A stretch of DNA of 64,000 nucleotides, from NCBI GenBank assembly GCA_041572755.1, contig JBFFRY010000002.1, positions 3,901 to 67,900 on the forward strand, written 5' to 3'. The position numbers were made by a program, and so were the translations under genes. The notes below the pieces were generated by a model. It saw nothing but the letters and a program-made list of their open reading frames with translations, was not told the DNA's origin and made no database searches. Numbering within the stretch: position 1 is the first letter of the stretch; each line of letters opens with the position of its first letter. Shown in pieces: positions 12,641-60,864 of the stretch. The DNA is from Acidimicrobiia bacterium (GTDB lineage Bacteria; Actinomycetota; Acidimicrobiia; Spongiisociales; UBA11373).

Positions 12641-12673
12641 GGACTCCCATCGTTGCCGGCGAAGCCCGGCCGA

Positions 12674-13936: not shown

Positions 13937-13991
13937 TGCTCCCGAGGTTACGCCGCCGGTCGGCGTCGAGGGGCTCGCTCGCCCCGGCCGT

Positions 13992-15392: not shown

Positions 15393-15416
15393 CGTACCGG
15401 CAGGTCGACCGGCTTC

Positions 15417-16532: not shown

Positions 16533-16560
16533 GTCCTATCGGCCCCCGACCGGCCCCGCT

Positions 16561-17574: not shown

Positions 17575-17659
17575 GAGGCCATCCTCGCGCGCTCCGGAGG
17601 CTTCGACACCCGGTCGTCATCTTGGCCCCGTTTCGAGGTCGTCGTACCATCCGCCAACG

Positions 17660-18376: not shown

Positions 18377-18433
18377 CCGAGCGTCCGTCGATCCGGCCTG
18401 CCAGAGTGGGCCCCTCACCACGGAAGAGCCATC

Positions 18434-19264: not shown

Positions 19265-19289
19265 ACGTCCTGAGGTGTAAGTTGCCTCC

Positions 19290-38539: not shown

Positions 38540-38735
38540 CCCGGTACTCGTGGCCGGGTGGCTCGGTGGTTCCCACCGAGGGAGGCAAGAGCGAAGCCGG
38601 TTCGAATCCGGCGCTGTCCCGCAACTGTGAAGCCCCTGCGGGGGACAAGCCAGGTCGCCTGCCACCGGGCCGGAAGGACGCTCTCGGAGGAAGGGTGGCC
38701 GCTCCGGCGGAGGCCCCTCCTCCCCGACACAGAGA
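38540..38735 (+). promoter_or_regulatory. Cobalamin (AdoCbl) riboswitch in the 5' leader of the btuF-like ABC importer operon.
   Basis: Core GGTGGTTCCCACCGAGGGAGGCAAGAGCGAAGCCGGTTCGAATCCGGCGCTGTCCCGCAACTGTGAAGCCCC matches the cobalamin riboswitch consensus (...GGGAAG.C.GGTG.GAATCC..GCG.TCCCGCCACTGT.A..., B12-box GCCACTG here GCAACTG). Downstream CCGG/GG pairing segments precede the ATG at 38744. Confidence 0.85.
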
Positions 38736-38743
38736 GGGGTCTG

Positions 38744-39655
38744 ATGACCCGCCGGTCTTGCTGGGCGCTTCTCGCCCTGTCCCTCATGGCATCCGCATGC
38801 GGCGCCGACGGAGGAGTCGACACCACCTCGGCCCCTGCGGCACCGGACTTCCCGACGATTGTGCTGGGCGTGGAGATTCCATCCCGCCCCGAGCGAATCG
38901 TTTCGGCCTCCGCCTCCCACACCGAGATCCTGTATGCGATCGGCGCCGGGGAGGGGATCGTGGCCACCGACCTCTTCAGCGACTATCCGCCGGAGGCCGC
39001 TTCCACCGAGAAGATCGATGCGTTCAACCTCAACGTCGAAGCGGTGGCGGCCTTGGAACCGGACCTGGTGATCCTCGGTTTCGACCCGGGCGACGTCACC
39101 GCCGGTCTCGCCACCCTCGGCATCCCCGTATTGCTCTTCGATGCCCCGGCAGCGCTCGTCGACGTCTGGAACCAGGTGGAAGCCCTGGGTGCCGCGATCG
39201 GCCGGCCCGAGGAGGCGGCGACCTTGACCGCCGATATGCAGGCCTCGATCGATGAGTTGGCCGGGTCGGTGGGTGGGGGTGAGCCGACGAGCTACTACCA
39301 CGAGCTCGACCCGACGTATTTCACCATCACCTCGGAGACCTTCCTCGGGGAGCTCTACGGGTTGCTGGGCCTGCGCAGCATCGCGGATGAGGCGAGCGAT
39401 GCCGGGTTCGGCTACCCGCAACTGAACGCCGAGTTCATCATCGACGCAGACCCCGATTTCGTGTTCCTGGCCGACACCCTGTGCTGTGGTGCGACGGTGG
39501 ATTCACTCGCCGAGCGGCCCGGGTGGGATTCACTGAGCGCGGTGGCGGACGGCCGGGTCGTCGTGCTCGACGACTCGGTGGCTTCGCGATGGGGCCCGAG
39601 GATCGTCGAGTTCCTCGAGACCGTGGCGGAGGCAGTTTGGGAGGGCGCCGGGTGA
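38744..39655 (+). CDS. ABC transporter substrate-binding lipoprotein, BtuF / siderophore-binding (periplasmic binding protein class III) family. The start was re-assigned to the ATG at 38744; the ORF-track start 38531 lies inside the riboswitch.
   Basis: MTRRSCWALLALSLMASACG (lipobox), IVSASASHTEILYAIGAGEGIVATD, LEPDLVILG. A cobalamin riboswitch lies immediately upstream. Confidence 0.85.
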   Translation: MTRRSCWALLALSLMASACGADGGVDTTSAPAAPDFPTIVLGVEIPSRPERIVSASASHTEILYAIGAGEGIVATDLFSDYPPEAASTEKIDAFNLNVEAVAALEPDLVILGFDPGDVTAGLATLGIPVLLFDAPAALVDVWNQVEALGAAIGRPEEAATLTADMQASIDELAGSVGGGEPTSYYHELDPTYFTITSETFLGELYGLLGLRSIADEASDAGFGYPQLNAEFIIDADPDFVFLADTLCCGATVDSLAERPGWDSLSAVADGRVVVLDDSVASRWGPRIVEFLETVAEAVWEGAG

Positions 39656-40680
39656 CCGGGCAGTCCCGCCGCGCCGGGCCGGGCCGCCTGACCCTCATGT
39701 TGGGGGTCCTGCTGGGCGCCGTGGTGGCCGGCCTGCTCGTCGGGCCCGTCTCGCTCAATCCCTTGCGGGTACTCGCCGAAATCGTCGACCGGTTGCCTTT
39801 GGTCTCCGTCGACAGCGGGTTGACGGAACGCGAGGCCGCCATCGTCTGGGATCTCAGGTTGCCGCGGGTGGTGTTGGGGGCGATCGTTGGGGCGGTGCTC
39901 TCCGTGGCCGGTGGCGCCTATCAGGGCGTGTTTCGCAACCCCCTGGCAGATCCGTATCTCCTCGGAGTGGCGGCCGGTGCCGGTCTCGGGGCGACGCTGG
40001 CCATCGTGGGGGGCCAGTCGACCGGGGGTTTCGTGCCTCTGGCGGCCTTTGTCGGCGCCGTAGCCGCCGTGGCCGCCGCCTATGGGCTGGGGAGCGCCGG
40101 GGGAATGACGGGGTCGTCGCTGATCCTCGCCGGCGTGGCGGTGGCGGCCTTCTTCACGGCGGCACAGACCTATGTTCAGCAGCGCAACGCCGACACGATC
40201 CGGGAGGTCTTCGCCTGGATCCTGGGAAGGCTGGGGACGGCCGGATGGCACGAGGTGCGGCTGGTCATTCCCTATGCGTTCGTGTCGGTGGTCGTGATCC
40301 TGCTGCATCGCAGGCTGCTCGACGTGATGGCGGTGGGCGAGGACGAGGCCGGGACACTGGGCGTCGACCCGGCCCGGGTGCGGCTCACGGTGGTGCTCGC
40401 AGCAACGCTGGGGACGGCGGCGGTGGTGGCGGTGAGCGGCCTCATAGGCTTCGTCGGGATCATCGTGCCTCACACGATCCGCCTCATGTTCGGGGGTAGC
40501 TACCGCTCGATCCTTCCTTTGGCCGTGATCGGCGGAGCCGCGTTTCTGGTGCTCGCCGATCTCGCCGCCCGTACCGTGCTGGCACCCGCCGAGGTCCCGA
40601 TCGGTGTGGTGACTGCCTTCCTGGGTGCCCCGTTCTTCGGTGTGGTGCTTCGCAGTTCGGTGCGGAGGAGGACCTCATGA
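39652..40680 (+). CDS. FecCD-family ABC importer permease (BtuC-like). A GTG start at 39652 overlaps the binding-protein stop (GTGA).
   Basis: 10-TM FecCD signature (LRLPRVVLGAIVGAVLSVAGGAYQGVFRNPLADPYLLGV, MVAVGEDEAGTLGVD). The ORF-track N-terminus (from 39481) is junk overlapping the SBP gene. Confidence 0.85.
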   Translation: MTGQSRRAGPGRLTLMLGVLLGAVVAGLLVGPVSLNPLRVLAEIVDRLPLVSVDSGLTEREAAIVWDLRLPRVVLGAIVGAVLSVAGGAYQGVFRNPLADPYLLGVAAGAGLGATLAIVGGQSTGGFVPLAAFVGAVAAVAAAYGLGSAGGMTGSSLILAGVAVAAFFTAAQTYVQQRNADTIREVFAWILGRLGTAGWHEVRLVIPYAFVSVVVILLHRRLLDVMAVGEDEAGTLGVDPARVRLTVVLAATLGTAAVVAVSGLIGFVGIIVPHTIRLMFGGSYRSILPLAVIGGAAFLVLADLAARTVLAPAEVPIGVVTAFLGAPFFGVVLRSSVRRRTS

Positions 40681-41456
40681 GCGGAATCGCGACATCGGGC
40701 GTCACCGTGGCCTACAACGGGCGCGCCGTCCTCGACGGCGTCGACCTGCGCGTGGCCGGCGGTGAATGGGTGGCCGTCATCGGGCCCAACGGGGCCGGGA
40801 AGACGACGTTGTTGCGGGCGGTCTCCGGAACGGTGCCCTTTGGGGGGTCGGTGCTCATCGGCGGCGTGCCGATCGACTCGATGTCACGACGCGAGGCGTC
40901 CCGAGCGATCGCGGTCGTTCCCCAGCATCCGGTGATTCCCAGCGGGGCCACGGCCCTCGACTACGTCCTGCTCGGCCGGACCCCCTACATCGGCTATTGG
41001 GAGATGGAGCAGGCCGAGGACGTTCGCATCGCCCGCTCCGCGCTGGAGAGACTGGACTGTGGGGAACTCGCCCGGCGCCAGGTGGGCAGGTTGTCGGGAG
41101 GGGAACGGCAGCGGGTCGTACTGGCCCGAGCCCTCGCCCAGGATGCCGAGATCCTCCTGCTCGACGAGCCGACGACATCGCTCGACATCGGGCATCAACA
41201 GCAGGTGCTCGACCTCGTCGACGGTCTTCGTCGGGAGCGGGGGATCACCGTCCTGGCGGCCTTCCACGATCTCACGCTCGCCGCCCAATACGCGGATCGG
41301 ATGGCGCTGCTCGACGGGGGCGTGATCGTCGCCGACGGACCGCCCACAGAGGTGCTCACGGCCGACGTGCTGGCGCGGTTCTCGGGTGCGAGGGTAACGG
41401 TGCTGCGGAGCCCCGATGGTGATCCGATCGTTGTGCCCCTGAGGGATCAGGCGTAG
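40677..41456 (+). CDS. ABC transporter ATP-binding protein (BtuD/FecE-like).
   Basis: Walker A GPNGAGKTTLL, LSGGERQRV, LLLDEPTTSLD, H-loop. Confidence 0.9.
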   Translation: MSGIATSGVTVAYNGRAVLDGVDLRVAGGEWVAVIGPNGAGKTTLLRAVSGTVPFGGSVLIGGVPIDSMSRREASRAIAVVPQHPVIPSGATALDYVLLGRTPYIGYWEMEQAEDVRIARSALERLDCGELARRQVGRLSGGERQRVVLARALAQDAEILLLDEPTTSLDIGHQQQVLDLVDGLRRERGITVLAAFHDLTLAAQYADRMALLDGGVIVADGPPTEVLTADVLARFSGARVTVLRSPDGDPIVVPLRDQA

Positions 41457-47880: not shown

Positions 47881-50103
47881 ATGCGAAAACTGCTCACGTT
47901 CACCGTTGCTCTCGCCCTCACGGCGGTGAGCTGCAGCCAGTCGGAGGGGACCGCCACGACGACGTCGTTCCCGACGGCGACGACCACGGGAGGCACCTCG
48001 GCGATTGCCGAGCGGTTCGACCCCTCGTCGATCAGGTTCGAGGCTGCCCTGGAGCGCTTCGATCGTTGTGAGGGGGTGCTCGAGCACTTCATCGCCGAGG
48101 CGCTCGAACGGGTCGGTCCCTACGGACTGGACGGCGGTGGACCGGTAGTCATCATGGAGGACGGGGTCGCCTTCGCCGCCGAGGGAGACGAGGCGGCTGC
48201 TCCTATGACCACGATGGTCACCGACCTCGACCGACCAGGCGACGACTTCTCGGGCACGAACGTGCAGGTCGCCGGTGTCGACGAGCCGGATGTGATCAAG
48301 ACGGACGGTGATCGGATCGTCGCCATCGTCGAGCGGAAGCTCTACTACGTCGATGTGAGCGGATCGGTGCCCGAGTTGCTCGGATCGCTCTACCTGGGCG
48401 ATGCGTGGGGTCACACGATGTTCGTGAGTGGTGATCGGGCGTTCGTGTTCGCCACCGGCTACGGGATCGCCCCGCTTCCGGCTACGGCCGAATCCTCGGT
48501 GATCCCTTCCTACGGCGAGACGACCGTGATTCAGGAGATCGACCTCTCCGATCCCGAGGATCTCGAGGTGGTGCGGACCATGACGGTCGAGGGTCGTCTG
48601 CTGAGTGCCCGATCGATCGGGGACACCGGTCGGATAGTGCTCTCCTCGTACCCCGCCGAGCTCGCCTTCGTCTACCCGAGCGGGCCGGCGGCCGAGCCGA
48701 TCGCCGAGCAGACGAACCGCCAGATCGTGCAGAACAGCATGCTGGACGACTGGCTCCCCAACTACACGGTGACCGACGGCGACTCGATCGTGGATCAGGG
48801 CCTGCTGGTCGACTGTGACGGCGTGCATGCCCCCGCCGAGTTCGCCGGCTTCAACACCGTCTCGGTGGTCACCGTCGACTTCTCAGAGGGGCTGGGTTCT
48901 TCCGAGTCGGTCGGGGTGATCGCCAACGGCGAGACGATCTACGCCTCGACGGAGAGCCTCTATGTGGCGACCAACGTCTGGGTCCCCGGTGAATGGATCG
49001 GCGACACCAGCCTGGGCGACTTCGAGGAGGAGTACAGCACCGCCGTCCACAAGTTCGACATCTCCGGTGAAGGTCCCGCCGAGTACCGCGCCTCCGGCAG
49101 CGTGGACGGCCACCTGCTCAACCAGTTCTCCATGGACGAGTACGAAGGCAGGCTCCGGATCGCCACCACCGACGGCCCCCCGTGGGGCTTCGGCGACGAA
49201 TCGGAGTCGTTCGTGGTCGTGCTGGAGGAAGACGGCGACCGTTTGGTCGAGGTCGGCCGGGTCGGCGACATGGGCCGCGGTGAGCGGATCTTCTCGGTGC
49301 GCTTCATCGGTGAGGTCGGCTACGTGGTGACGTTCCGACAGACCGATCCCCTGTATGTGGTGGACCTGCGCGACCCGGGGAACCCCACCGTCACGGGCGA
49401 GCTGAAGATCCCCGGATATTCGGCCTACCTGCATCCGATCGGCGACGGCCGGCTGATCGGCGTGGGCCAGGAAGCCACCGACGAGGGCTTCACGATCGGG
49501 GCCAAGGTGTCGCTGTTCGACGTTTCGGATCCGACCGATCCACGCGAGGTGGACACCTGGGTGCTCGAAGGCGGCTACACCGAGGTGGAGTGGGATCACC
49601 ACGCGTTCCTCTACTGGGCGCCGGAGAACCTCGCCGTGCTCCCGCTCCAGGACTGGTCGACCGGTTTCTTCGGCGGGGTGGCGTTGCGGACCGACGACGG
49701 TCTGCGCGAGTTCGGTCGCATCACCCACGAGCTCGGATCCGTGCAGGGAGCGTCGGACTGCCGTGAGGTCGAGATACCGGAGGAGTACTACGAACCGGGC
49801 CTGATCGTGCAGGTCTGTGGAACGGACGACGTCGGCGGCTACGGGGCTCACGACTGCGAGGTGATTCCCGCCGAAGAGGCCCGGTTGTACTCCGAGGACT
49901 TCGACGTGATCGGGTACGACGTCGACGAGTTGATGGGCGACGACGATCGGTTGGAGATCTGCTTCCCGCCGTACGATGAGAGCCGGGCGGCGATCCAACG
50001 GTCCCTGGTGATCGGAGACTCGCTGTGGACGCTCTCGTGGCGGGCTCTCCAGGCCAACGCCCTCGACAGCCTCGAGGTGGAGCACACGATCCCGTTGGGA
50101 TAG
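47881..50103 (+). CDS. Large secreted lipoprotein of the beta-propeller-domain family (Beta_propel-like). The start was re-assigned to the ATG at 47881 (MRKLLTFTVALALTAVSCS).
   Basis: Lipobox. T-rich linker. The C-terminal region YVVDL.DP..P...GEL.IPGYS.YLHP..DG.L.G.G...... then V.LFDVSDP..P.....W matches my recollection of the archaeal/bacterial beta-propeller domain family. The ORF-track N-terminal 114 aa are a shadow of the thioesterase gene. Confidence 0.7.
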   Translation: MRKLLTFTVALALTAVSCSQSEGTATTTSFPTATTTGGTSAIAERFDPSSIRFEAALERFDRCEGVLEHFIAEALERVGPYGLDGGGPVVIMEDGVAFAAEGDEAAAPMTTMVTDLDRPGDDFSGTNVQVAGVDEPDVIKTDGDRIVAIVERKLYYVDVSGSVPELLGSLYLGDAWGHTMFVSGDRAFVFATGYGIAPLPATAESSVIPSYGETTVIQEIDLSDPEDLEVVRTMTVEGRLLSARSIGDTGRIVLSSYPAELAFVYPSGPAAEPIAEQTNRQIVQNSMLDDWLPNYTVTDGDSIVDQGLLVDCDGVHAPAEFAGFNTVSVVTVDFSEGLGSSESVGVIANGETIYASTESLYVATNVWVPGEWIGDTSLGDFEEEYSTAVHKFDISGEGPAEYRASGSVDGHLLNQFSMDEYEGRLRIATTDGPPWGFGDESESFVVVLEEDGDRLVEVGRVGDMGRGERIFSVRFIGEVGYVVTFRQTDPLYVVDLRDPGNPTVTGELKIPGYSAYLHPIGDGRLIGVGQEATDEGFTIGAKVSLFDVSDPTDPREVDTWVLEGGYTEVEWDHHAFLYWAPENLAVLPLQDWSTGFFGGVALRTDDGLREFGRITHELGSVQGASDCREVEIPEEYYEPGLIVQVCGTDDVGGYGAHDCEVIPAEEARLYSEDFDVIGYDVDELMGDDDRLEICFPPYDESRAAIQRSLVIGDSLWTLSWRALQANALDSLEVEHTIPLG

Positions 50104-50130
50104 GAGCGCGGGGCGGCGGATAATCGTCGC

Positions 50131-51070: not shown

Positions 51071-51436
51071 ATGAACCCGGCCATTCGTCAGGCATTGAAC
51101 ACCGACCGGACCATCGACATCACCACCCGCGGCCGTCACAGCGGTGCCGAGCGGCGCCTGGAGATGTGGTTTCACAACGTCGACGGCCGGATCTTCATCA
51201 CCGGGATGCCCGGTCGCCGCGACTGGTACGCCAATCTGGTGGCGAACCCGGAGTTCACGTTCCATCTCAAGGAGAGCGTCGCCGCCGATCTGGCGGCGGT
51301 GGCGGTTCCCGTCACCGACCCCGAACATCGACGGCCGATCCTCGCCGAGATCACCGGCCGGCTGGGGCACGCCGACCGCCTCGACACCTGGGTGGAGCGG
51401 AGCCCGCTGGTCGAGGTCCACTTCGAGGATGGATAG
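51071..51436 (+). CDS. Nitroreductase-family deazaflavin (F420)-dependent oxidoreductase (DUF385).
   Basis: ITTRGRHSGAERRLEMWFHNVDGRIFITG...DWYANLVANPEFTF. The DUF385 signature (TTtGRKSG.pR..pL........vvas.GG...p.Wy.NL.A.P.v). Confidence 0.7.
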   Translation: MNPAIRQALNTDRTIDITTRGRHSGAERRLEMWFHNVDGRIFITGMPGRRDWYANLVANPEFTFHLKESVAADLAAVAVPVTDPEHRRPILAEITGRLGHADRLDTWVERSPLVEVHFEDG

Positions 51437-52172
51437 GATCCCGGCCGTGGGTCGGGGTCGCTTCCTGTACGTCTTCATGCACCTGCCCAAGACGGGCGGC
51501 ACCACCATCAACGGCCATTTCTACGACCACATGGACTGGGACGTCGACGTGGTCCACCTCGGCAAGTGGGGGGATCGCTACCGAACTCGGGAACGGCGCC
51601 CTTCACTGCAGGAGCGATCGGCCGAGGAGCGGGCGCGCATTCGGGTGCTCACCGGGCACGGCACCTACTACGGGATCCACGGGTTGATCGAAGGCACCAC
51701 CCCGCGCTACCTCACGATCGTGCGGGACCCGGCCGATCGCATCGTCTCCACCTACAACTTCCGGGCCGCCCGGGGTGAGGTCGGTGACTTCTGGTCCTGG
51801 TACGCCGGGTTCCCTCGGAACGCCGGAGTGAAGTGGCTGCGGAAGCGCCTCGGGGGCCCCCGGTCGTTGAAGGAGATCACCGAGGCCCTGCGCGGGTTCT
51901 GGTTCGTCGGTGTCACCGAGCGCCTCGACGAGGACCTGCCCCGGGTGTTCGGGGCGCTCGGGCTCCCGCCCGGGTTCCGCACGAGGCGGGTGGCGGGGGC
52001 CGAGCGGGATCTCGAAGGACTGGACCATCCGGATGAGGAACGGCGCGTTCAGCGCCGGATGGTCGTCGACCACGAGATGCGGGCCCGCCTCCATGAGGAG
52101 AACCCCAGAGACCTTCGCCTGTATGAGTTTGCGGTGGGTCGTCGAGACCACCTGCGGGATTCGCTTCAGTAG
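51429..52172 (+). CDS. Sulfotransferase, family-2-like (carbohydrate sulfotransferase type). Its start overlaps the DUF385 stop by 8 nt.
   Basis: FMHLPKTGGTT (5'-PSB of Sulfotransfer_2-type enzymes, h-h-H-hPKTGGTS), 247 aa. The ORF-track N-terminal 95 aa are a shadow of the DUF385 gene. Confidence 0.65.
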   Translation: MDRIPAVGRGRFLYVFMHLPKTGGTTINGHFYDHMDWDVDVVHLGKWGDRYRTRERRPSLQERSAEERARIRVLTGHGTYYGIHGLIEGTTPRYLTIVRDPADRIVSTYNFRAARGEVGDFWSWYAGFPRNAGVKWLRKRLGGPRSLKEITEALRGFWFVGVTERLDEDLPRVFGALGLPPGFRTRRVAGAERDLEGLDHPDEERRVQRRMVVDHEMRARLHEENPRDLRLYEFAVGRRDHLRDSLQ

Positions 52173-53088
52173 CCGAGCTCGGAGAGGAGATCACCGATCT
52201 CTCGCCGAAGGAGCTCGGCGTCGTGTGCCTCGAGTTCGGCTTCCCAGCGCCCCTGCCGGTCGTCCCGGGCTTCGTTGAAGACGTCGAGGGCCGCGGCGCG
52301 GGATCCGGTCGGGACCCCGAGGAACTCGAGGACGGCGTTGCCGGTGGCCTGGGGATCGGCGACGAGCGCCTCGTAGCGAACCTCGAGGTAGCGGTCGGCG
52401 GGCATCAGCGACCCGGCTTCCCGCGCCGCGGTGACATGGCGACGCCAGCCCCACGCACAGCGGTGGACCGTGGTGGTTTGCTCGAACTCGGCGGCGCGGC
52501 CCGGCTCGACCCAGAAACGGGCGAAGGGGCCGTGGCGGTACCCGCCGGGTTCGTGGCGGCCCAGCTCGGCTCCGGCGGGATCGAGCCAGGGCCGCCGGCT
52601 CCACGACATCGCGGCGTCCCGTCCGTCCCGGATGATGTGCACGAACCGGGCATCGGGGAATGCAGTGGAGAGGAAGCCCAAGATCATGGCGTTGCGGGGC
52701 GTCTTGTCCACCTGACGGAGGTCGCCGTCGCAGCGGAAGCGGGCCAGCCACCGATAGGTGCGCCGGTAGAAGGAGGCGGCTCTCTCGGTGCTCCACAGCC
52801 CGGCGTAGACGTAGGGGGCGGCCGCCTTGGTGAGGACCGGTTCGAAGTGGTACGAGAACTCGGGAACCGCAGCCAGGGCTCTTCCCAGGAAGGTGGTGCC
52901 CGATCGGGGCGCCCCCACGATGAACACCATGTCGCCCAGGACGGGAGCGAGCGACGCCCGGAGGCGGTGGAGGGACCGGCGCCGCCGATGACCGGGCGAG
53001 TAGCGGAGGTCGGCGGCGATCGTCTTGGCGGCGAGCAGGGGCATCCGCCACCACCGCAGAGGCCGGTGGGGGAGGGGGACGGCCGTCA
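52166..53088 (-). CDS. Sulfotransferase (Sulfotransfer_1/3-like, PAPS-dependent). The start ATG overlaps the GT4 stop (ATGA).
   Basis: 5'-PSB IVGAPRSGTTFL and 3'-PB IIRDGRDAAMS; 307 aa. Extracted from the 714-aa ORF-track model 52166..54310, whose upstream part is a shadow frame. Confidence 0.75.
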
Positions 53089-54156
53089 TCGCTTGCCCCC
53101 CAGTCTTGCGACCGCGGCGGCGACCTCGGTCCAGGGGGTGTGGGACGCCGCGGCGCCCCGGGCCAGCGCCTCCAACCCGTCGAGGGCCCGCTCGATCGCA
53201 TCGGCGTATGCATCGGCGTCTCCGGGCGGCGCCAACGTTCCGTTGACGCCTTCCGTGATGCGTTCCGCCAGACCGCCGGCCGTGGTGGAGACGACCGGGC
53301 GGCCGGCGGCGAAGGCGAGGGGAACGATCCCCGACTGGGTGGCGGCCCGATACGGGGTGGCCACCAGGTGGTGGCGTTGCAACAGGTCGGCCACCTGGTC
53401 GTCCCCGGCATACCCGGGGTGCAGCGTCACCAGATCGCCCACACCCAGGGCGTCGATCTGTCGGGTGTAGGCGGCGACTGGGTCCCAGAACTCCCCGGCA
53501 ACGGTCAGGCGGACCGGTCGCTTCCGGTCGCGCAGCTTGGCGATCGCCTCGATGGCCACATCGACGCCTTTGTAGTGGCGCACGAAGCCGAGGAAGAGGA
53601 TCCCCGGAGGTTCGGTCGCCGGGAGTGGCGTGGGGTGGAGATCCAGGTTGGGCGGATGGGGCACAACCTCGACCCGGGGGACCTCGATCACGGTTGCCAG
53701 GTCGGCGGCGACCGCGGCGGCGTGGACGACGACGGCGTCGACCCGGCGTAGAGCTGCCCGGGTGAGCGACCGGGAGAACGGCAGCCGTTCGTGGGGAATC
53801 GCATTGTGGACGACCGCCACCGCCGGTCGGCGGGCGGTGCCGAGCACCCGGCGCAACGGAAGACCGTGGAAGGGGGTGATCCACTGGACGACGACGAGAT
53901 CGGCGGACCGCAGGTCCCGGCCGGCTCGGTGCCACGACAGTGGGTTCCACCATCGGAGCAGGAAGCGAACCCGGGTGTCGTCGGCTGCGGAGGTGTCGAT
54001 CCGGGCACCCTTGTAGAGGAGCGGCGGATACTGGGAGCGCCACGAGACCACGGAGACGTCGTGGCCGAGATCGTCGAGTGCGGCGGCGAGCCGGGCGGTG
54101 TGCTGGGCCACCCCTCCGCGCAGGGGAGGGAACGGACCCACCAGGGAGATGCGCAC
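53086..54156 (-). CDS. Glycosyltransferase family 4 (GT4); GTG start.
   Basis: MRISLVGPFPPLRGGVAQHT (GT4 N-domain), C-domain GILFLGFVRHYKGVDVAIEA...PYRAATQSGIVPLAFAAGRPVVSTTAGGLAE. 356 aa. Confidence 0.85.
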   Translation of the reverse strand: MRISLVGPFPPLRGGVAQHTARLAAALDDLGHDVSVVSWRSQYPPLLYKGARIDTSAADDTRVRFLLRWWNPLSWHRAGRDLRSADLVVVQWITPFHGLPLRRVLGTARRPAVAVVHNAIPHERLPFSRSLTRAALRRVDAVVVHAAAVAADLATVIEVPRVEVVPHPPNLDLHPTPLPATEPPGILFLGFVRHYKGVDVAIEAIAKLRDRKRPVRLTVAGEFWDPVAAYTRQIDALGVGDLVTLHPGYAGDDQVADLLQRHHLVATPYRAATQSGIVPLAFAAGRPVVSTTAGGLAERITEGVNGTLAPPGDADAYADAIERALDGLEALARGAAASHTPWTEVAAAVARLGGKR

Positions 54157-54200
54157 GCGGCGACCCTACCAGCGGCCGGCCCGGCGTCGCCTCCGTATAC

Positions 54201-55131
54201 TGCGCGGCCGATGACCCCCAAGCCGACCCAGGTGCTCTTCGTCGTCGGGAAGGGCCGCAGCGGTACCACCCTTCTCGGGAACCTCCTCGGCCGGGCCGAG
54301 GGTTTCGCATCGGTCGGGGAGTTGTGGCGCCTGTGGCAGGACGACCCTGCAGTCACCCTTTGCGGATGCGGGAGGCTGCTCACCGAGTGTGAGGTCTGGG
54401 CGACCGTGATCGATCGACTGGGGATCACCGCGGAGGTCCGGAGCGAGATGCTCGACCACCAACGGAGGGTGATTTCCTGGCCGGCGGCCCCGGCCATGTT
54501 GTGGGGGCGGCTGAGGAGCCGCCGCTTCGGGCGTGCCCTGACGGCCTACGGGGTCGCCATGGCATCGGTGTACCGCACGGTGGCCGAGTCGACCGGTGCG
54601 GAGGTGGTCATCGATTCGTCGAAGTGGCCGCTGGATCCGGGCCTGGTTGCGGCGGTCGAGGGGGTGGAGGGTTTCGGGGTCCATCTGGTGCGTGACCCCC
54701 GAGCGGTGGCCTACTCGTGGCGGCGCCAGAAGCGCTATCCGGAGGGCGGGGAGATGCCTCGCTTCTCGCCCCTCTATTCGGCCCTCAGCTGGTCGGCTCG
54801 CAACCTTCTGGCCGAACGAGCTCGACATCGGGCCGGTCCCCGATGGCTGCGGGTCCGCTACGAGGACCTGGTGGAGGATCCCGACGAGGCTCTCGCCGGG
54901 ATCGTGAGCCTGGTGGGGCGGACGAACGAGGTCTTGGCGTCCTCGGTGGCCGGGGGGGCGGTGAGCCATACGGTGGCCGGTAATCCGGACCGCATGGCGA
55001 CCGGGCCGATCGAGATTCGCGGTGATGAGGCGTGGAGATCCACCAGCGGCGTTTTCGCCAATTCCGTCGTGACTGCCGTGTGCTTCCCCTGGATGCTGCG
55101 CTACGGCTATCCGCTGCGCCGTCCCACCTAG
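54201..55131 (+). CDS. Sulfotransferase (Sulfotransfer_3 / Stf0-like family). The start was re-assigned to the ATG at 54201.
   Basis: 5'-PSB VVGKGRSGTTLL, SSKWP, 3'-PB HLVRDPRAVAYSW; 310 aa. The ORF-track N-terminal 136 aa (from 53791) are antisense to the GT4 gene. Confidence 0.75.
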
Positions 55132-57215
55132 GGACGGGGCTCGGGCACCGTCACCCACAGCTCCCCGGAGCCGACCCACACGTTGCCGACCGCGTCGAAT
55201 CCGAGCCTGATGAAGACCCGCTGGATCCCGTCTTCGGGGACCGCGCACATGAAGTCGACGGGACCGAAGGCCCGGGGCGTGGTGAAGTTGGATGCGGCCT
55301 CGACCAACCGCCGCTCGCCGGTTTCGTCCTCGAAGCGGCAGGTGATCTTGGGGCTCTTCTGGAGCGGTGTCATGGCGGCCAGATCGAGGCGCGCCGTCAG
55401 GTATGAGCCGGGGGGCACTTCGACGGCTCTGCCGATGGGGGGGCTGTCGAGGCGGACCGGGTCGGTCTCGGCGTCGGTGGCGAACTGGATGGGCGCGGCG
55501 ACGGCCGGGTCGAGTTGGTCCCCGGGCTGCAGGTCGCCGAACGTGAACTGGCGGACGACCCAGGGATGATCGGTCACGCCGAGAGGTCCGGTACTCCACT
55601 CGTCGCGGGTCGGCGCGTTGGTGAGAACGGCGATGCGGCCGTCTCGGGTCACGTGGAGGAGGGACCAACCGGGGGGCCGGGTCACGAGGTAGTCGGGGAT
55701 CTGTTGTTCGGCGCCGGCGAATCTCCACCCGTCGGTGTCGTAGAGGATGATCGAGCCGGTGGGAAGCGCTTCGGGGGGCATGAGCCACTCGTCGCCGAGC
55801 CCTCTGCCGGGGAGGAAGCGGTTGGTGACTGTGGGAGCGAGGCTCTTGAGGTCGCCTTCCCACAAGCCGCCACCGAAGCTGGTGCGGGAGTACATGTCGG
55901 CGAGGCGGAGGCTGTTGGTGTCGGACCAGATGGTGTCATACCCCTGGGCCTCTTCGGCCAGCCAGGTGCGGATCTCGCGGTAGCCGTTGTCGCGGTTGAG
56001 GAAGTAGTTGTCGTCGCCGACGGTGGCCGATGCGGTGAACCCGACGAAGACCGCGGCAAAGACGAGCGGGACGGCCAGGGTGATGGGGCGCCACCGGATT
56101 GCCGTGAACCGTTTGGCGGCCTCGGTGATGGCGGCAATGCCGCCGATGAAGAGCGCCGGCAGGACCGGGAACCAGTAGCGGTCCTTGTCGAGGCGAAGGA
56201 CTCGGCCTCCACCGGGCTTCTCGAACCAGCCGATGGCAGAGAACACCACCCACAGGCCGAACAGCCACAGGGCCATGATGAGGAACCGTCGGGAACGCTC
56301 GACGGACGTCCAGAGGGCGGCCATGGCGGCCAGGCCGAGAAACAGCCACCCTCCCGTCTCCCGGAGCAGCAGTCGCGGCAGCGCGGTGATTGCCTTGAGG
56401 AACGTTCCCTGGAATTCGCGAGCCGAGACCTGCCGCACCACGTCTCCCTTGGAGGTACCGACCCGGCCGAGGAGCACTTCGATCCGGGTGAAGGGGTCAC
56501 CGAACGCCACCCAGTTCCAGGCGAGTTCCGCCGCCAGGACCGCCAGTCCGGCTCCGGCCAGCCACCAGATCTTGCGCCACGGAAGGCGGTACCGCCACCA
56601 GACGAAGAGCACCAGTGGAGCAAGGAAGACGACGACTTCCTTGGAGAGGTAGGCGCCGCCGAACAGCAGCCCGGATCCGATGAGCATGACGTGGGTGGCT
56701 CGCGTCCAGGGCCGGCCCTCCTCGATGCGGACGGCGGTTGCGATGAGCAGCGCCATGCCGCCGGTGAGGAGTGCGGTGGCGGGGAGGTCCGGCCAGACCT
56801 GGCTCGATCGGGTGAGGACGAACGGGTTGAAGAAGACCAGGACGGCGGCCGTGACGCCGACGAGGCGGCCGAACAGGAGCCGCCCGAGGTAGTAGGTGGC
56901 GATGACGAGGAGGCCGCCGACGATGAACGGCACGGCGTAGAACGCCGCCTCGGAGTAGCCGAACGCTCGCTGTGCCAGCCAGACCGGCAACAGCAGCCCG
57001 ATGCGGGTGGTCTTGTGCTCCGGCTCCAGATCGAGGGGATGGTCGGCGGCATCGAAGTAGAAGAAGGGGTCGCGGCGGAACGGGGCCTCGAGGAAGACGA
57101 TCTGGAGGACCAGGTAACCGGCGGCCAGCAGCGCTGCCACCGCCCAGTCGGGGAGCCGTCGGAGGCGCGCCGCCGCAGAGCCGAGGAGAGCGGCGGCTCG
57201 GCTGCTACTCGTCAC
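55128..57215 (-). CDS. GT-C superfamily glycosyltransferase (PMT/ArnT-like, GT39/GT83-type) with a ~290-aa C-terminal extracytoplasmic domain of unknown function.
   Basis: 695 aa, about 11 TM helices. Acidic first-loop motif RRDPFFYFDAADH. Polytopic N-terminal ~400 aa typical of polyprenyl-phosphate-sugar-dependent GT-C enzymes. Soluble C-terminal domain. Confidence 0.7.
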   Translation of the reverse strand: MTSSSRAAALLGSAAARLRRLPDWAVAALLAAGYLVLQIVFLEAPFRRDPFFYFDAADHPLDLEPEHKTTRIGLLLPVWLAQRAFGYSEAAFYAVPFIVGGLLVIATYYLGRLLFGRLVGVTAAVLVFFNPFVLTRSSQVWPDLPATALLTGGMALLIATAVRIEEGRPWTRATHVMLIGSGLLFGGAYLSKEVVVFLAPLVLFVWWRYRLPWRKIWWLAGAGLAVLAAELAWNWVAFGDPFTRIEVLLGRVGTSKGDVVRQVSAREFQGTFLKAITALPRLLLRETGGWLFLGLAAMAALWTSVERSRRFLIMALWLFGLWVVFSAIGWFEKPGGGRVLRLDKDRYWFPVLPALFIGGIAAITEAAKRFTAIRWRPITLAVPLVFAAVFVGFTASATVGDDNYFLNRDNGYREIRTWLAEEAQGYDTIWSDTNSLRLADMYSRTSFGGGLWEGDLKSLAPTVTNRFLPGRGLGDEWLMPPEALPTGSIILYDTDGWRFAGAEQQIPDYLVTRPPGWSLLHVTRDGRIAVLTNAPTRDEWSTGPLGVTDHPWVVRQFTFGDLQPGDQLDPAVAAPIQFATDAETDPVRLDSPPIGRAVEVPPGSYLTARLDLAAMTPLQKSPKITCRFEDETGERRLVEAASNFTTPRAFGPVDFMCAVPEDGIQRVFIRLGFDAVGNVWVGSGELWVTVPEPRP

Positions 57216-58080
57216 GGCGCGCCAGGCGCGCCATCAGGTCGGCGATCAGCCCGATGGCCACGATCTGGAGCGACACGATGGTGAGGATGATCGCGTTGCT
57301 GGTGATCCGAAGGTTCTTGTCGAAGGCGTCGTAGCCGACTTTGGCGGCCGCCATCACCAACAGGAGCATGCCCAGCGGCATGAACACCCGGAGCGGATTG
57401 AACGTCATGATCATGCGTACCACTTGCATGAAGTAGTTGGCGGTGTCGCGGCGCCAATGGAACTTCGACTTGCCGGCTCTGGGGTGGTATTCGATGGGCA
57501 CGTACTTGACGGGGTGGCCTCGTGACAGGAACGCCATGGATATGGTGCTGACACAGGAGAACCCGTTGGGCAGCAGGTAGAGGTAGGGGAGCGCCACGGT
57601 CCTGCGAAAGGCCCGGAACCCGGTGTTGAGGTCCGGGATCTTCTTGCGCACCAGATACGAGGCCAGTCTGCGGATGAACCACTTTGCCGGGACCCGCGCC
57701 CAGCGATGGGTCCCCTCCTCGGTGCGGCGGGCCCCGATCACCTGGTCGTATCCGGGGGTCAACTCGTCGACCAGGTCGGCGATCTTGTCGTTCGGGTACG
57801 ACATGTCGGCGTCCGACCACACCACGATGCTCCCCCGGGCGGCCCGCGTCCCCTGCTTGCGGGCGTAACCCGAGCCCTGATTCTCGGCCACCTCGATCAA
57901 CTTGATCCCGTCGATCCCCCGCAGGATCTCGGTGGACCCATCGGTGGAAGCGTCGTCGACCACGATGATCTCGTAGGCGTAGGGGGAGCCGTCGAGACCC
58001 TTGCGGATGCGCGTGATCTCGTCGGTGAGGTGACCCGCCTCGTTGTGGACGGGCAGGACGACGCTGACGTCGATGGACAC
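57205..58080 (-). CDS. GT2 polyprenyl-phosphate glycosyltransferase (Dpm1/Ppm1/ArnC/GtrB-like) with a C-terminal TM anchor; 11-nt overlap with the GT-C gene.
   Basis: VSVVLPVHNEAGHL, VVDDASTDGS, DADMSYP (DxD), a QXXRW-less short GT2 core, C-terminal TM helices. 291 aa. Confidence 0.9.
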   Translation of the reverse strand: MSIDVSVVLPVHNEAGHLTDEITRIRKGLDGSPYAYEIIVVDDASTDGSTEILRGIDGIKLIEVAENQGSGYARKQGTRAARGSIVVWSDADMSYPNDKIADLVDELTPGYDQVIGARRTEEGTHRWARVPAKWFIRRLASYLVRKKIPDLNTGFRAFRRTVALPYLYLLPNGFSCVSTISMAFLSRGHPVKYVPIEYHPRAGKSKFHWRRDTANYFMQVVRMIMTFNPLRVFMPLGMLLLVMAAAKVGYDAFDKNLRITSNAIILTIVSLQIVAIGLIADLMARLARRDE

Positions 58081-58585: not shown

Positions 58586-58732
58586 CGTTCCTCACTCCCC
58601 TTTCGTTGTGCCCGCCGCGCTGGGCGGCGGGTACCCCCTCCTGTTGAGCGTCGCTCAGATCGGCCCGGACTCTAGACAAGGGTCGGGCTTGTGCACAATC
58701 GCACAAAGTTCCGGGAGTCGAGGGGTGGCTGG

Positions 58733-58779
58733 TGGGCCCGGCTGGGTTCGAACCAGCGACCTCGTCCTTATCAGGGACG
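58733..58779 (-). pseudogene. Partial tRNA-Ile: a 47-nt copy of the 3' half of the nearby tRNA-Ile(GAU) (anticodon arm, variable loop, T arm, 3' acceptor strand, plus an encoded CCA). Candidate att-site direct repeat.
   Basis: 58733-58779 tgggcccggctgggttcgaaccagcgacctcgtccttatcagggacg vs 60790-60836 tgggcccggctggattcgaaccagcgacctcatccttatcagggatg (44/47 identical). Upstream sequence diverges; there is no D-arm or 5' acceptor strand. Confidence 0.65.
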
Positions 58780-59184: not shown

Positions 59185-60636
59185 ATGGGCAACAACCGGA
59201 TGATCCGTCGACTGGTGCTGGTGATGGCGCTCGTGGTCGTTGCGTGTGGCGACTCGACGGGCACGTCGACCACAACGGGTCCGGGCTCCTCCTCATCGAC
59301 GGAGGGGACGGCGGCTCCATCCACCTCTGCCCCAACCACCACGACCAGCCTCGCCTCAGAGGGAACCGCGGGCTCGTCGACCACGATCGCCGGTGGCTTC
59401 GACGTCGCCGTCGGCGAGTTCTGTGTGACCGGGACCGCTTCCGACGACACGCTCAATCTGCGGGCGGGGCCCGGAACCGAGTTCGAGGACATCGGGGACC
59501 TGGCGTTCGATGCCACGGGCGTCCGCAACACGGGTGCCGGGGCCTACGACCAGCAGGGTCGGCCGTGGTTCGAAGTCGCCGTCGGTGACGGCACGGCATG
59601 GGTTGCATCGTGGTTCTTGATCGCCGCTCCCTGTGAAGCGTCGTCGGGGTTGGTCGAGCCCGACGACGTGGGCGACGATCGGAGGATCGCGGCCCAGTTC
59701 GTGGTCCTGGGCCACAACGGTTTCAGCGTGGGCGATGCGTTCTTCCCGCTGGGATTCGGGCACGGTGTGGACGACGACGAGGTCGTCGCCGTGATGACGG
59801 ACTGGTTGTGGCCTCCCGTCTTCGACTCCGGATGGGAGCCAGACCCGAACACCCCCGGTGCCGAACGGCGTCGGGTGGTGTGGGGCGACGTCACCGAAGG
59901 GGTGCGGACCCCGGGCTCGGGATTCACCCTCTACTTCTCCAACGACGTGGGCAAGCTCGATACGACACCCGGTGGGCTCCTGTGCGACCCGGTGTGCTTG
60001 AACGGGTTCTCCTTTGGCGGGCAACCCGGCGGTATCGCGACGGTGATGCCGGGTATCACGGTCGGCAGCACGATCGGTGAGGTGACGGCGGCCGTGAGCG
60101 TATACCGGCCCGACGTCGGGCTGAACCTCTTCGAGTGGGTCGAGGGGGCGTGGTGGCAACTCGAGGCGGGCAACGGAGAGTTCGGGATCCTGTGCTTCGC
60201 CACCGGCCCCTCCGGCTTCCAGCCTCCCGACACCGCAGTGGTTCGCCACATCGGTGCCGGGTTTGGGCCGGGCTGCTCGCCGGACGGTGACGTCGCCACC
60301 GACCCGAGGGCCTATTACCTGGTCGAAGCCCTGGCCCCTGAGCTGGGAGGTTTCGCCGTGGCCCGCGACGGCGCCATCGTGCGGGGCACCCAGGACGCCT
60401 ACGTCGTCGACTACCGGTCGTGCTGCAAGGGCGACACGCTGTACGCCACCATCAGCTCACCCGAAGGCAACGCAGTGTTCTCGGTCTACGGGCCCGGGGG
60501 CGAGCTGCTGGCGAGCGAGGCAACGACGGTCGATCTCGAACTCGAGGCGGGCGGCGAATACTGGATCACAGTTGGGTCGACGCGCGGGAACGCCTCGTAC
60601 AGCATCGAGATCGGCCTCAGCGAAGACGCCTCCTGA
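59185..60636 (+). CDS. Secreted lipoprotein with an SH3b-like domain, a central unknown domain and a C-terminal PPC-like domain. The start was re-assigned to the ATG at 59185 after the RBS aaggagag.
   Basis: MGNNRMIRRLVLVMALVVVACG (lipobox). S/T-rich linker. LNLRAGPGTEFEDIG...WFEV..GTAWVASWFL (SH3b-like). C-terminal TLYATISSPEGNAVFSVYGPGGELL...GEYWITVGSTRGNASYSIEI (PPC-like). The ORF-track N-terminal 120 aa cross the tRNA fragment and are not credible. Confidence 0.65.
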   Translation: MGNNRMIRRLVLVMALVVVACGDSTGTSTTTGPGSSSSTEGTAAPSTSAPTTTTSLASEGTAGSSTTIAGGFDVAVGEFCVTGTASDDTLNLRAGPGTEFEDIGDLAFDATGVRNTGAGAYDQQGRPWFEVAVGDGTAWVASWFLIAAPCEASSGLVEPDDVGDDRRIAAQFVVLGHNGFSVGDAFFPLGFGHGVDDDEVVAVMTDWLWPPVFDSGWEPDPNTPGAERRRVVWGDVTEGVRTPGSGFTLYFSNDVGKLDTTPGGLLCDPVCLNGFSFGGQPGGIATVMPGITVGSTIGEVTAAVSVYRPDVGLNLFEWVEGAWWQLEAGNGEFGILCFATGPSGFQPPDTAVVRHIGAGFGPGCSPDGDVATDPRAYYLVEALAPELGGFAVARDGAIVRGTQDAYVVDYRSCCKGDTLYATISSPEGNAVFSVYGPGGELLASEATTVDLELEAGGEYWITVGSTRGNASYSIEIGLSEDAS

Positions 60637-60743: not shown

Positions 60744-60789
60744 AACCCAACCTATCCAGACCCCCCGCAAGTCATGGAGTCCTGAGGAG

Positions 60790-60864
60790 TGGGCCCGGCT
60801 GGATTCGAACCAGCGACCTCATCCTTATCAGGGATGCGCTCTAACCGGGCTGAGCTACGGGCCC
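60790..60864 (-). tRNA. tRNA-Ile (anticodon GAU), 75 nt, CCA not encoded.
   Basis: The minus-strand transcript GGGCCCGTAGCTCAGCCCGGTTAGAGCGCATCCCTGATAAGGATGAGGTCGCTGGTTCGAATCCAGCCGGGCCCA folds as a cloverleaf: 7-bp acceptor, D-arm GCTC/GAGC, anticodon loop CTGATAA, T-arm GCTGG/CCAGC with TTCGAAT loop. Confidence 0.9.

Follow-up and report, generated by a model that had tools for sequence, protein, structure and literature searches.

A candidate pathway for a sulfated cell-envelope glycan encoded by three sulfotransferase and three glycosyltransferase genes in an uncultured Acidimicrobiia bacterium

Six overlapping or closely spaced genes lie in a replication-origin region

The stretch of DNA analyzed here, referred to as the window, comprises 64,000 nucleotides (nt) from an Acidimicrobiia bacterium (GenBank assembly GCA_041572755.1, contig JBFFRY010000002.1, positions 3,901 to 67,900 of the forward strand). 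An open reading frame (ORF) listing and re-translation identified six intact ORFs at 51429-58080 (~6.6 kb), three of which encode sulfotransferases of the type that uses 3′-phosphoadenosine-5′-phosphosulfate (PAPS) and three of which encode glycosyltransferases. A prediction made earlier from the sequence, hereafter the original prediction, had described this cluster as a candidate pathway for a sulfated glycoconjugate, a proposal which holds and is strengthened by distant loci that link the GT-C glycosyltransferase family to sulfation. Re-translation and Pfam agreed with it on the six overlapping or abutting ORFs, their strands, their domain types and all four overlaps. Two coordinates changed, as the end given for ST-B (53088) yields a range that is not a multiple of three and is actually 53089, and the start given for ST-C (54201) is out of frame, with the ATG at 54211. 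The features are:

51429-52172, plus strand: ST-A, 247 amino acids (aa), predicted soluble PAPS-type sulfotransferase of the Sulfotransfer_2 class with an HS2ST/HS6ST-like fold
52166-53089, minus strand: ST-B, 307 aa, predicted soluble Sulfotransfer_3 sulfotransferase with a TPST-like catalytic set
53086-54156, minus strand: GT4, 356 aa, predicted GT-B glycosyltransferase with a cytoplasmic nucleotide-sugar donor, PimA/MshA-like
54157-54210: divergent intergenic region of 54 nt between the starts of GT4 and ST-C
54211-55131, plus strand: ST-C, 306 aa, predicted soluble Sulfotransfer_3 sulfotransferase, a distant paralog of ST-B with a Cys cluster
55128-57215, minus strand: GT-C, 695 aa, membrane glycosyltransferase with a GTG start
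57205-58080, minus strand: GT2, 291 aa, predicted polyprenyl-phosphate glycosyltransferase of the GtrB/ArnC/DPMS/AglJ class with two C-terminal transmembrane (TM) helices

ST-A and ST-B are convergent with a 7-nt overlap, the stop of GT4 and the start of ST-B share an ATGA, ST-C and GT-C converge over 4 nt (CTAG), and the stop of GT2 overlaps the GTG start of GT-C by 11 nt. The ATG of ST-A also overlaps, by 8 nt, the stop of an upstream F420H2_quin_red-like gene, so that ST-A closes a plus-strand unit starting at a DUF523/DUF1722 gene. Ahead of the DUF523 gene, a promoter scan placed one promoter-like site (50095-50124), and promoter and terminator scans found no usable promoter or terminator inside the six-gene block. 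The 54 nt between GT4 and ST-C are presumed to be a bidirectional promoter region; a consensus scan found no sigma-70 consensus site there.

All six genes are real, and each is under purifying selection. Their GC content at third codon positions (0.84-0.91) matches that of the other genes of the window, and the pairwise ratio of nonsynonymous to synonymous substitution rates (dN/dS), calculated against four relatives, was 0.09-0.30 over all six, with 0.12-0.23 for ST-A and 0.09-0.12 for GT2. The window is a replication-origin region, as had been proposed, since it holds parB, parA, jag, dnaA (28464-29882), dnaN, recF, gyrB, and gyrA, and its GC skew flips sign near 30 kb.

Three sulfotransferases retain PAPS-binding and catalytic residues

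ST-A matched the Pfam family Sulfotransfer_2 (1.9e-8), and ST-B and ST-C matched Sulfotransfer_3 (1.2e-28 and 9.6e-13), all above the gathering score. The sulfotransferase fold was checked by a structural model for ST-A, and ST-B and ST-C were classed from sequence profiles. An AlphaFold2 (AF2) model of ST-A built from 32 homologs reached a predicted local distance difference test (pLDDT) score of 91.9, and its best Foldseek matches in the PDB were HS2ST (4ndz, 3.7e-8) and HS6ST (5t03); as modeled, the fold resembles those of the heparan-sulfate 2-O and 6-O sulfotransferases. Residues H18, T22-G24, G76, R99, P101, and S107 are invariant in the ST-A family and K21, T25, T26, and H77 nearly so. 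These include the 5′-phosphosulfate loop (LPKTGGTT), the 3′-phosphate motif (R99, P101, S107), and the candidate catalytic base at G76-H77, which we take to be equivalent to the His base of HS2ST and HS6ST.

The only solved relatives of ST-B found by sequence were the tyrosylprotein sulfotransferases (TPST1/2) and the OLS sulfotransferase domain. Its invariant residues are R62-S63-G64-T65, E83, K129, R154-D-G-R-D158, and S162, with a 5′ loop of APRSGTT and a 3′-phosphate motif formed by R154-D158 and S162. K129 aligns with the TPST Lys, and the overall spacing presumably matches that of R78/E99/K158 and the 3′-phosphate-binding (3′-PB) motif in TPST2. The candidate bases E83 in ST-B and E37 in ST-C each lie 21 residues past the loop Arg, which we assume to correspond to the R78/E99 pair of TPST2. 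ST-B is ~50% identical to cyanobacterial sulfotransferases from glycosyltransferase-rich loci.

ST-C belongs to a very large family (8957 representatives), and in the PDB it is closest to the sulfotransferase domains of OLS and CurM (4gox, 2.4e-6, and 4gbm). It had been described as Stf0-like, an assignment which we reject, as only Sulfotransfer_3 and Sulfotransfer_1 were matched and PF09037 gave no match at E<=0.01. Invariant residues are R16-S17-G18, E37, C51/C53/C60, R161-D162, R164, S169, and H253, with K138 and P163 near-invariant; the 5′ loop is GKGRSGTT, and R161-D162, R164, and S169 form the 3′-phosphate motif. The three invariant Cys lie within residues 51-60 (window 54361-54390) in a CGCG...C..W pattern, which together with H253 suggests a structural metal site. 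No such site is known to us from characterized sulfotransferases.

The original prediction had counted three distinct sulfotransferase families. By profile comparison there are two Pfam families and three subfamilies, as the profiles of ST-B and ST-C show full-length homology (hhalign 98.5%, E 2e-15) and ST-A has only the 3′-PB motif in common with either. The 5′-phosphosulfate-binding Lys named in the same prediction is present in ST-A only; ST-B and ST-C have Arg at this position, as in TPST and CurM-ST. The predicted PAPS-binding motifs are intact in all three proteins, which keep family-invariant PAPS-binding and catalytic residues and look active. No hydrophobic or TM segment was found in ST-A, ST-B, or ST-C, and therefore they must act in the cytoplasm, where PAPS resides.

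These matches raise the question of substrate. The sulfotransferases could have substrates other than carbohydrate, such as a small metabolite, a lipid, or tyrosine in a peptide or protein, with their placement among glycosyltransferase genes being incidental. Among solved structures, ST-B is closest to tyrosylprotein sulfotransferases and ST-C to sulfotransferase domains that offload polyketides; Sulfotransfer_3 is functionally broad, and in the window ST-A is predicted to be co-transcribed with the DUF523/DUF1722 and F420-type reductase-like genes. The PDB matches, however, span only the shared PAPS-binding core, the fold of ST-A is like that of carbohydrate sulfotransferases, and homologs of ST-A and ST-B occur mostly in glycosyltransferase-rich loci. 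Together with the gene arrangement in relatives described below, this makes a non-carbohydrate target very unlikely, and we favor sulfation of a glycan.

The glycosyltransferases include a putative polyprenyl-phosphate-sugar synthase and a membrane transferase

GT2 matched Glycos_transf_2 (1.4e-27, above the gathering score), and residues 2-286 of its 291 align with GtrB (5ekp, 3.3e-18), ArnC (1.4e-17), and DPMS (5mlz, 5.7e-15). This alignment includes a C-terminal hairpin of TM helices at ~224-248 and ~264-282, and the motifs DDAS and DAD could be read in the sequence. GT2 is thus predicted to be a polyprenyl-phosphate glycosyltransferase of the GtrB/ArnC/DPMS type. Its best NCBIfam matches were AglJ (2.2e-29), a dolichyl-phosphate hexose transferase, PgfS, and ArnC, but none is at equivalog level (AglJ scored 102.8 bits where 325 are required, and all others also fell below their cut-offs), and they do not define the sugar specificity.

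GT-C is a glycosyltransferase of the GT-C fold that belongs to a rare, uncharacterized family, with 7 homologs in a set of 5.8 billion proteins. A look-up of its exact sequence gave no match. It matched PMT_2 (3.3e-7, 31.1 bits against a cut-off of 26.1) and has ~10 TM helices in residues 24-399, followed by a ~295-aa beta-rich extracytoplasmic C-terminal domain. Foldseek matches to its low-confidence AF2 model were exclusively GT-C folds (AglB/STT3, ALG9/12, ArnT, Pmt4, and AftD) at TM-scores of 0.3-0.4, which cannot separate the ArnT, PMT, and oligosaccharyltransferase (OST) types. Matches of the C-terminal domain to carbohydrate-binding modules were weak and not significant. Conserved over 64 family members are D49 in the first outside loop (kept in 98%), R71, P142-D143, E193, E230, and R346-Y-W-x-P. 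The pairing of a polyprenyl-phosphate-sugar synthase with a membrane transferase, which had been predicted, agrees with the GtrB/ArnC/DPMS alignment of GT2 and the GT-C folds. The description of GT-C as PMT/ArnT-like stands for the fold and for PMT_2 and fails for the PMT family proper (PF02366/GT39), which scored 20.9 bits against a cut-off of 22.7. Membership of STT3/AglB/PglB was likewise rejected, as PF02516 scored 18.7 bits against 24.5 over residues 88-137 only, and no WWDxG-like motif was seen when the C-terminal domain was read by eye.

GT4 matched Glycos_transf_1, Glyco_trans_1_4, and Glyco_transf_4 above the gathering score, and its PDB matches included PimA (over the full length), MshA, and sucrose-phosphate synthase. 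It is a generic GT-B enzyme closest to PimA and MshA. Haloalkaliphilic archaea use sulfated trehalose as an osmolyte, and mycobacteria make it with Stf0; the cluster might by analogy make a soluble sulfated sugar such as a sulfotrehalose-like disaccharide osmolyte, with GT4 as the synthase, the sulfotransferases as modifiers, and GT2 and GT-C unrelated. GT4 enzymes do include soluble disaccharide synthases, of which the sucrose-phosphate synthase match is a reminder, and a major facilitator superfamily (MFS) transporter gene stands beside the block in some relatives. However, the window lineage and its closest listed relative have no such gene, ST-C is not Stf0-like, three different sulfotransferases are hard to justify for one solute, and GT4 is linked with GT2 and GT-C in a distant locus (L003, below). 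We consider a soluble product highly improbable, even more so than a non-carbohydrate target, and prefer a cell-envelope glycan.

The six-gene block is kept in close relatives as its flanks change

The original prediction had left conservation of the arrangement to be checked. Five related Acidimicrobiia lineages share the gene order, orientation, and overlaps of the window, with the 11-, 4-, 4-, and 7-nt overlaps kept wherever the gene calls of the relatives allow comparison. The loci, which were covered with 10-kb flanks, and their identities to the window proteins are:

L001: GT-C 96% identical
L002 and L004: GT-C 85% identical; L004 is from an Acidimicrobiia metagenome-assembled genome (MAG), the nearest genome
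L062 and L063: GT-C 78% identical
L064: GT-C 76% identical; the contig ends inside ST-B, and ST-A is not covered
L068: GT-C at a similar distance; ST-B 71% identical

In all of these relatives ST-B is ATGA-coupled to GT4, which argues against a non-carbohydrate role for ST-B. An MFS gene lies between a SnoaL-like gene and GT2 in L002 (7895-9043), L064 (469-1680), and L068 (603-1814), and is missing beside GT2 in L001 and in the window, where the spacer is 118 nt. It could encode a pathway exporter or flippase, or be unrelated. The DUF523 and F420-like genes are both absent in L068, where the six genes remain and ST-A directly follows a beta-propeller lipoprotein gene; we therefore rejected these two genes as parts of the system, and the retention of ST-A without them speaks against its having a role tied to them. 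As the flanks vary while the six genes stay contiguous, the block is more stable than its surroundings. This is modest evidence of coupling because all of these genomes are close relatives.

Two lipoprotein genes and a tRNA gene were observed near the block. The beta-propeller (PF09826) lipoprotein is encoded at 47890-50103 in the window and carries a lipobox and a linker rich in Thr (SCSQSEGTATTTSFPTATTTGGTS); the gene is upstream of ST-A on the same strand in L001, L002, L062/L063, and L068, the contigs that reach this far. That it is a glycan acceptor is possible as pure speculation. On the other side, the intact gene for tRNA-Ile(GAT) is at 60789-60864, and 46 nt of its 3′ end are repeated at 58732-58777. 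The 2,011 bp between the repeat copies hold a gene (59185-60636) for a 483-aa lipoprotein-like protein that has a long linker rich in Ser, Thr, and Pro and matches no Pfam domain. L002 has this segment, and L001 lacks it and is joined exactly at the repeat. The segment has no integrase and resembles what is left of an insertion targeted to a tRNA gene. The six-gene cluster was considered as a mobile island and rejected as such, since the repeat brackets this separate 2-kb insert and not the cluster.

The six genes may form one pathway for a small sulfated envelope glycan

Taken together, the predicted functions are best accommodated by a single compact pathway or tailoring island that would produce a small sulfated glycan of the cell envelope, a reading to which we assign a probability of roughly 0.55. 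GT2 would make a polyprenyl-phosphate sugar on the inner face of the membrane, and GT4 would add a further sugar to this or to another lipid-linked acceptor. ST-A, ST-B, and ST-C would then sulfate different hydroxyls at the cytoplasmic face, using PAPS made elsewhere in the genome. A flippase encoded outside of the cluster, for which the MFS protein beside GT2 in three relatives could serve, would move the product outward, where GT-C with its large outer domain would transfer the sugar or short glycan to an extracytoplasmic acceptor, perhaps a wall polymer, a lipoglycan, or a Ser/Thr-rich lipoprotein. The order of the steps, the flippase, the acceptor, and the source of PAPS we infer at most.

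Cytoplasmic tailoring of polyprenyl-phosphate-sugar donors is established, as in deformylation by ArnD and the epimerization of ribose to arabinose or xylose (PMC11127046). Sulfation of a donor before flipping would parallel ArnD, the conversion of decaprenyl-phosphoryl-ribose (DPR) to decaprenyl-phosphoryl-arabinose (DPA), and the sulfated dolichyl-phosphate glycans of Halobacterium. In Halobacterium salinarum, the N-glycan is built on dolichyl phosphate and its sugars are modified by two different sulfotransferases, and the sulfated dolichyl-monophosphate tetrasaccharides cited in that work indicate that sulfation precedes transfer (PMC11980604).

Distant loci link the GT-C family to sulfation

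Two distant loci connect the glycosyltransferases with one another. In L003, an ENA contig, homologs of GT-C (32% identical), GT2 (57%), and GT4 (46%) lie side by side with genes for FkbM-type and C-methyltransferases, nucleoside diphosphate (NDP)-sugar epimerases/dehydratases, and a flippase-like LPG_synthase_TM protein. No sulfotransferase was found in L003, and the methyltransferases stand in their place. In Actinopolymorpha alba (L053), a GT2 homolog (51%) is divergent from GT-C, with a GT4-like gene and a methyltransferase gene nearby. These arrangements thus suggest a GT2/GT4/GT-C core with interchangeable cytoplasmic tailoring enzymes. As GT4 travels with GT2 and GT-C in L003 and is coupled to ST-B in the window, the two halves of the cluster are linked.

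We surveyed 57 more distant GT-C loci from species-representative genomes, using home-made hidden Markov models for GT2, GT4, and sulfotransferases, such that the counts for distant loci are approximate. In a rough neighbor-joining tree, a clade from Gaiellaceae and other Actinomycetota MAGs (L010, L017, L021, L023, L031, and L032) adjoins the window GT-C clade, and its GT-C proteins are 33-41% identical to that of the window. ATP sulfurylase and a large Sulfotransfer_2-domain protein are encoded beside GT-C in all six of these loci, and a CysH-like PAPS reductase and an adenosine 5′-phosphosulfate (APS) kinase in five, the remaining locus (L021) starting inside the ATP-sulfurylase gene. Half of them (L010, L017, and L032) also have a Sulfotransfer_3 gene, which in L017 follows the ATP-sulfurylase gene after 40 nt, on the same strand. 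Most of the six continue with genes for a type I phosphodiesterase, a Wzx-like flippase, an epimerase, and a DUF2304-GT2 fusion, and L032 adds a sulfatase gene. None of these sulfation genes was found in the ~44 Streptosporangiales-type GT-C loci. In several uncultured lineages of actinobacteria, the GT-C family is, as judged from gene content, recurrently accompanied by genes for sulfate activation and sulfotransferases.

The L017 locus (1402-20057; also L010, L021, L023, L031, L032, and L056) comprises a larger gene set. It encodes ComA (phosphosulfolactate synthase), the CysH-like PAPS reductase, APS kinase, ATP sulfurylase, the Sulfotransfer_3 and big Sulfotransfer_2-domain proteins, DUF6077, GT-C, the type I phosphodiesterase, the Wzx-like flippase, the epimerase, the DUF2304-GT2 fusion, an 11-TM protein, LPG_synthase_TM, and a methyltransferase. 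This type of locus appears to be uncharacterized, and DUF6077 had no match in the literature searched. In L007 (3222-15669), from a Nitriliruptorales MAG, a GT-C homolog 33% identical to that of the window lies near an SLH-domain protein and is preceded by an ABC-2 transporter, a methyltransferase-glycosyltransferase fusion, and multidomain GT4 proteins; the GT-C family is therefore also used in ABC-transporter-dependent glycan pathways.

Among 41 metagenomic loci of at least 5 kb with ST-A-like genes, 22 had a GT2- or GT4-like neighbor within 3 kb and 14 had two or more sulfotransferases. The neighborhood of an ST-B homolog in Nodosilinea nodulosa holds six or more sulfotransferase genes and nine or more glycosyltransferase genes. 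The original prediction had regarded several sulfotransferases among glycosyltransferases as unusual for bacteria, which these counts correct; only the pairing with GT2/GT-C is unusual. Another locus rich in sulfotransferases, L065 (2905-11919), adjoins cytochrome oxidase genes. It encodes four ST-A paralogs with 36-49% identity to ST-A, two glycosyltransferases of the GT1 family, and a Sulfotransfer_3 protein, together with a NodI-like ABC-2 exporter made up of one ATPase and two permeases. L067 has an exporter of the same type, three or four ST-A paralogs, and one glycosyltransferase before the contig end.

These loci also bear on whether the cluster is one pathway or two separate modules that have only a target polymer or a neighborhood in common. 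In the latter case, GT2 and GT-C would add a single unsulfated side-chain sugar outside, and GT4 and the sulfotransferases would elongate and sulfate, in the cytoplasm, a lipid-linked repeat unit for the main chain of a polymer, with the core machinery (a priming transferase and Wzx/Wzy or an ABC exporter) encoded elsewhere, or alternatively would make a distinct sulfated glycolipid. Such a division fits known systems at least as well as a single pathway does, and in all characterized bacterial GT2/GT-C systems a single sugar is transferred, either unmodified or with light tailoring (PMC11127046). GT4 is similar to the membrane-lipid glycosyltransferase PimA, the ST-A paralogs in L065 and L067 occur with GT1-family enzymes and an exporter and no GT-C, the window GT-C family is found in none of the 41 metagenomic ST-A-like loci, and L017-type loci hold Wzx-like flippases and further polytopic proteins. 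On the other hand, GT2 and GT-C are accompanied by GT4 in L003 and by a GT4-like gene in L053, sulfation genes recur beside members of the GT-C family, and the six genes are contiguous where their flanks change. We regard two modules as somewhat unlikely. The result is still a sulfated glycoconjugate, and the difference from the single pathway is only one of wiring.

Several observations weigh against the single pathway that we prefer. The six genes are split over at least four transcription units on both strands, and their exact arrangement is confined to one narrow, overall syntenic clade, which limits its value as evidence of coupling. As had been noted originally, no PAPS-synthesis or sulfate-activation gene was found in the window, where the Pfam scan covered 49 of the 60 called genes. 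No flippase, initiating phosphoglycosyltransferase, polymerase, or exporter lies beside the cluster in the window; more specifically, no priming phosphoglycosyltransferase, polymerase or co-polymerase, or ABC exporter is encoded at 51-58 kb or in the flanking genes, and the nearest ABC-2 transporters are ~40 kb away at 6.9-12.6 kb. The AF2 model of GT-C, from 8 sequences, is poor (pLDDT 59.7). In a comparison of the sulfation-linked GT-C proteins with the rest of the family, in which we expected a positive pocket for a sulfated substrate, K215 and R281 were the only basic residues specific to them. L017-type loci differ in GT2 architecture and have Wzx-type flippases, and may work differently. 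ST-C looks frameshifted in two relatives, L001 (6444-7089) and L064 (4698-5863), and may be dispensable or decaying, or these assemblies may be poor; in L001, where the DUF523 gene is also broken, an assembly or sequencing error is likely. We know of no bacterial three-component system with a sulfated or oligosaccharide polyprenyl-monophosphate donor. Finally, the host is uncultured, and the support assembled here comes from sequence analysis throughout.

Comparison with known glycosylation and sulfation systems

The GT2/GT-C pair is most readily compared with the three-component systems, namely GtrB/GtrA/Gtr*, ArnC/ArnD/ArnEF/ArnT, CsbB/GtcA/YfhO, and polyprenyl-phosphoribose synthase/MATE/GT136. 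As in these, a GT2 with a TM hairpin is gene-coupled to a polytopic GT-C with an outside domain, and the class offers precedents for on-lipid tailoring of the donor in ArnD and in the epimerization of DPR and undecaprenyl-phosphate ribofuranose (UndP-Ribf) (PMC11127046). Unlike these, the block has no GtrA, SMR, or MATE flippase gene in or beside it, its GT-C is of a rare uncharacterized family, and it adds GT4 and three sulfotransferases.

Sulfotransferases of different subfamilies interleaved with GT2 and GT4 genes are also a feature of bacterial sulfated polysaccharide loci, such as xss (synechan) in Synechocystis, the capsule loci of marine Vibrio and Cobetia, and the predicted wps-1 of Actinoplanes missouriensis (PMC8205485, PMC11641403, PMC13390465). 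The authors of the synechan study noted that cyanobacterial sulfotransferase genes lie mostly in putative polysaccharide clusters (PMC8205485), and interleaving with glycosyltransferases is seen in the Vibrio and Cobetia capsule loci (PMC11641403, PMC11766843) and predicted for an actinomycete Wzx/Wzy cluster (PMC13390465). Those loci encode many glycosyltransferases, together with Wzx/Wzy and a polysaccharide co-polymerase or with ABC exporters, and have polymer products, whereas the block has two cytoplasmic-face glycosyltransferases, a GT-C, and no polymerase or exporter. The L017-type loci share with the block a GT-C of the same family, a Sulfotransfer_2-domain gene, and a GT2, plus Sulfotransfer_3 in L010, L017, and L032. 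They differ in encoding CysH, APS kinase, ATP sulfurylase, a Wzx-like flippase, LPG_synthase_TM, DUF6077, and a type I phosphodiesterase, in having a GT2 with an N-terminal DUF2304 membrane domain, and in having no GT4 ortholog.

The mycobacterial sulfolipid-1 (SL-1) locus (stf0, pks2, papA1/2, and mmpL8) is comparable in yielding a PAPS-dependent sulfated glycoconjugate of an actinobacterial envelope. In contrast to it, no Stf0-family protein (PF09037), polyketide synthase, acyltransferase, or MmpL is encoded in or near the block, nor did such a domain occur among the Pfam-scanned window genes, in keeping with the earlier view that the cluster is not of the SL-1 type.

A further comparison is with Halobacterium salinarum and its Agl25-29, the sulfotransferases Agl30/Agl31, and AglB. 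There, a glycan built on a polyprenyl monophosphate is modified by two different sulfotransferases and then flipped and transferred by a GT-C enzyme (PMC11980604), a logic that the block would share, and the best NCBIfam match of GT2 is AglJ, though far below the equivalog cut-off. The host here is bacterial, GT-C is not STT3/AglB, and orthology to the Agl sulfotransferases is not shown. An elaborated version of the single pathway would be a bacterial counterpart of haloarchaeal glycosylation, in which GT2 primes and GT4 extends a short oligosaccharide on polyprenyl monophosphate, the three sulfotransferases sulfate it at several positions while it is lipid-linked, and GT-C acts as an oligosaccharyltransferase that transfers it en bloc to Ser/Thr-rich envelope lipoproteins (the PF09826 beta-propeller lipoprotein being a candidate) or a wall polymer. 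We consider this version unlikely. If it were true, the cluster and the GT-C loci linked to PAPS genes would represent a previously unrecognized sulfated-glycan system across Actinomycetota.

Significance of pairing sulfotransferases with a GT2/GT-C pair

Sulfated glycans are well known from animals, algae, cyanobacteria, and haloarchaea; to our knowledge, those of Actinomycetota are essentially the mycobacterial sulfolipids. Even a predicted sulfated polysaccharide in an actinomycete was treated as noteworthy in a 2026 paper (PMC13390465). Multi-sulfotransferase glycan loci are common in cyanobacteria and metagenomes, and that part of the cluster is ordinary. What is new is only the pairing of sulfotransferases with a GtrB-type GT2/GT-C pair. 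We found no description in the literature of a sulfotransferase set joined to such a pair without a polymerase or exporter, nor of the recurrent link of this GT-C family to sulfate-activation genes, and literature on Acidimicrobiia sulfotransferases, sulfated actinobacterial wall polymers, and sulfotransferases with GT-C did not describe this type of locus. If the single pathway is correct, it would be the first bacterial sulfation coupled to the polyprenyl-phosphate-sugar/GT-C route, with sulfate placed either on the lipid-linked donor or on the glycan that receives it, and a function would be assigned to a rare GT-C family. The block spans six genes and 6.6 kb, a size that would permit reconstitution in a heterologous host, and position-defined carbohydrate sulfotransferases are of practical interest for making sulfated sugars.

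Other features of the window

A second glycan-related neighborhood lies ~40 kb from the cluster at 3415-12601. It includes another GT4 (3415-4539), an NAD-dependent epimerase-like/DUF2867 protein, DUF1295, a methyltransferase, and two ABC-2 transporter pairs (6898-9458 and 10902-12601). Elsewhere, a cobalamin riboswitch (Rfam RF00174, 52.3 bits) at 38550-38680 is upstream of a Peripla_BP_2/FecCD/ABC ATPase importer operon (38627-41456), which probably functions in B12 uptake.

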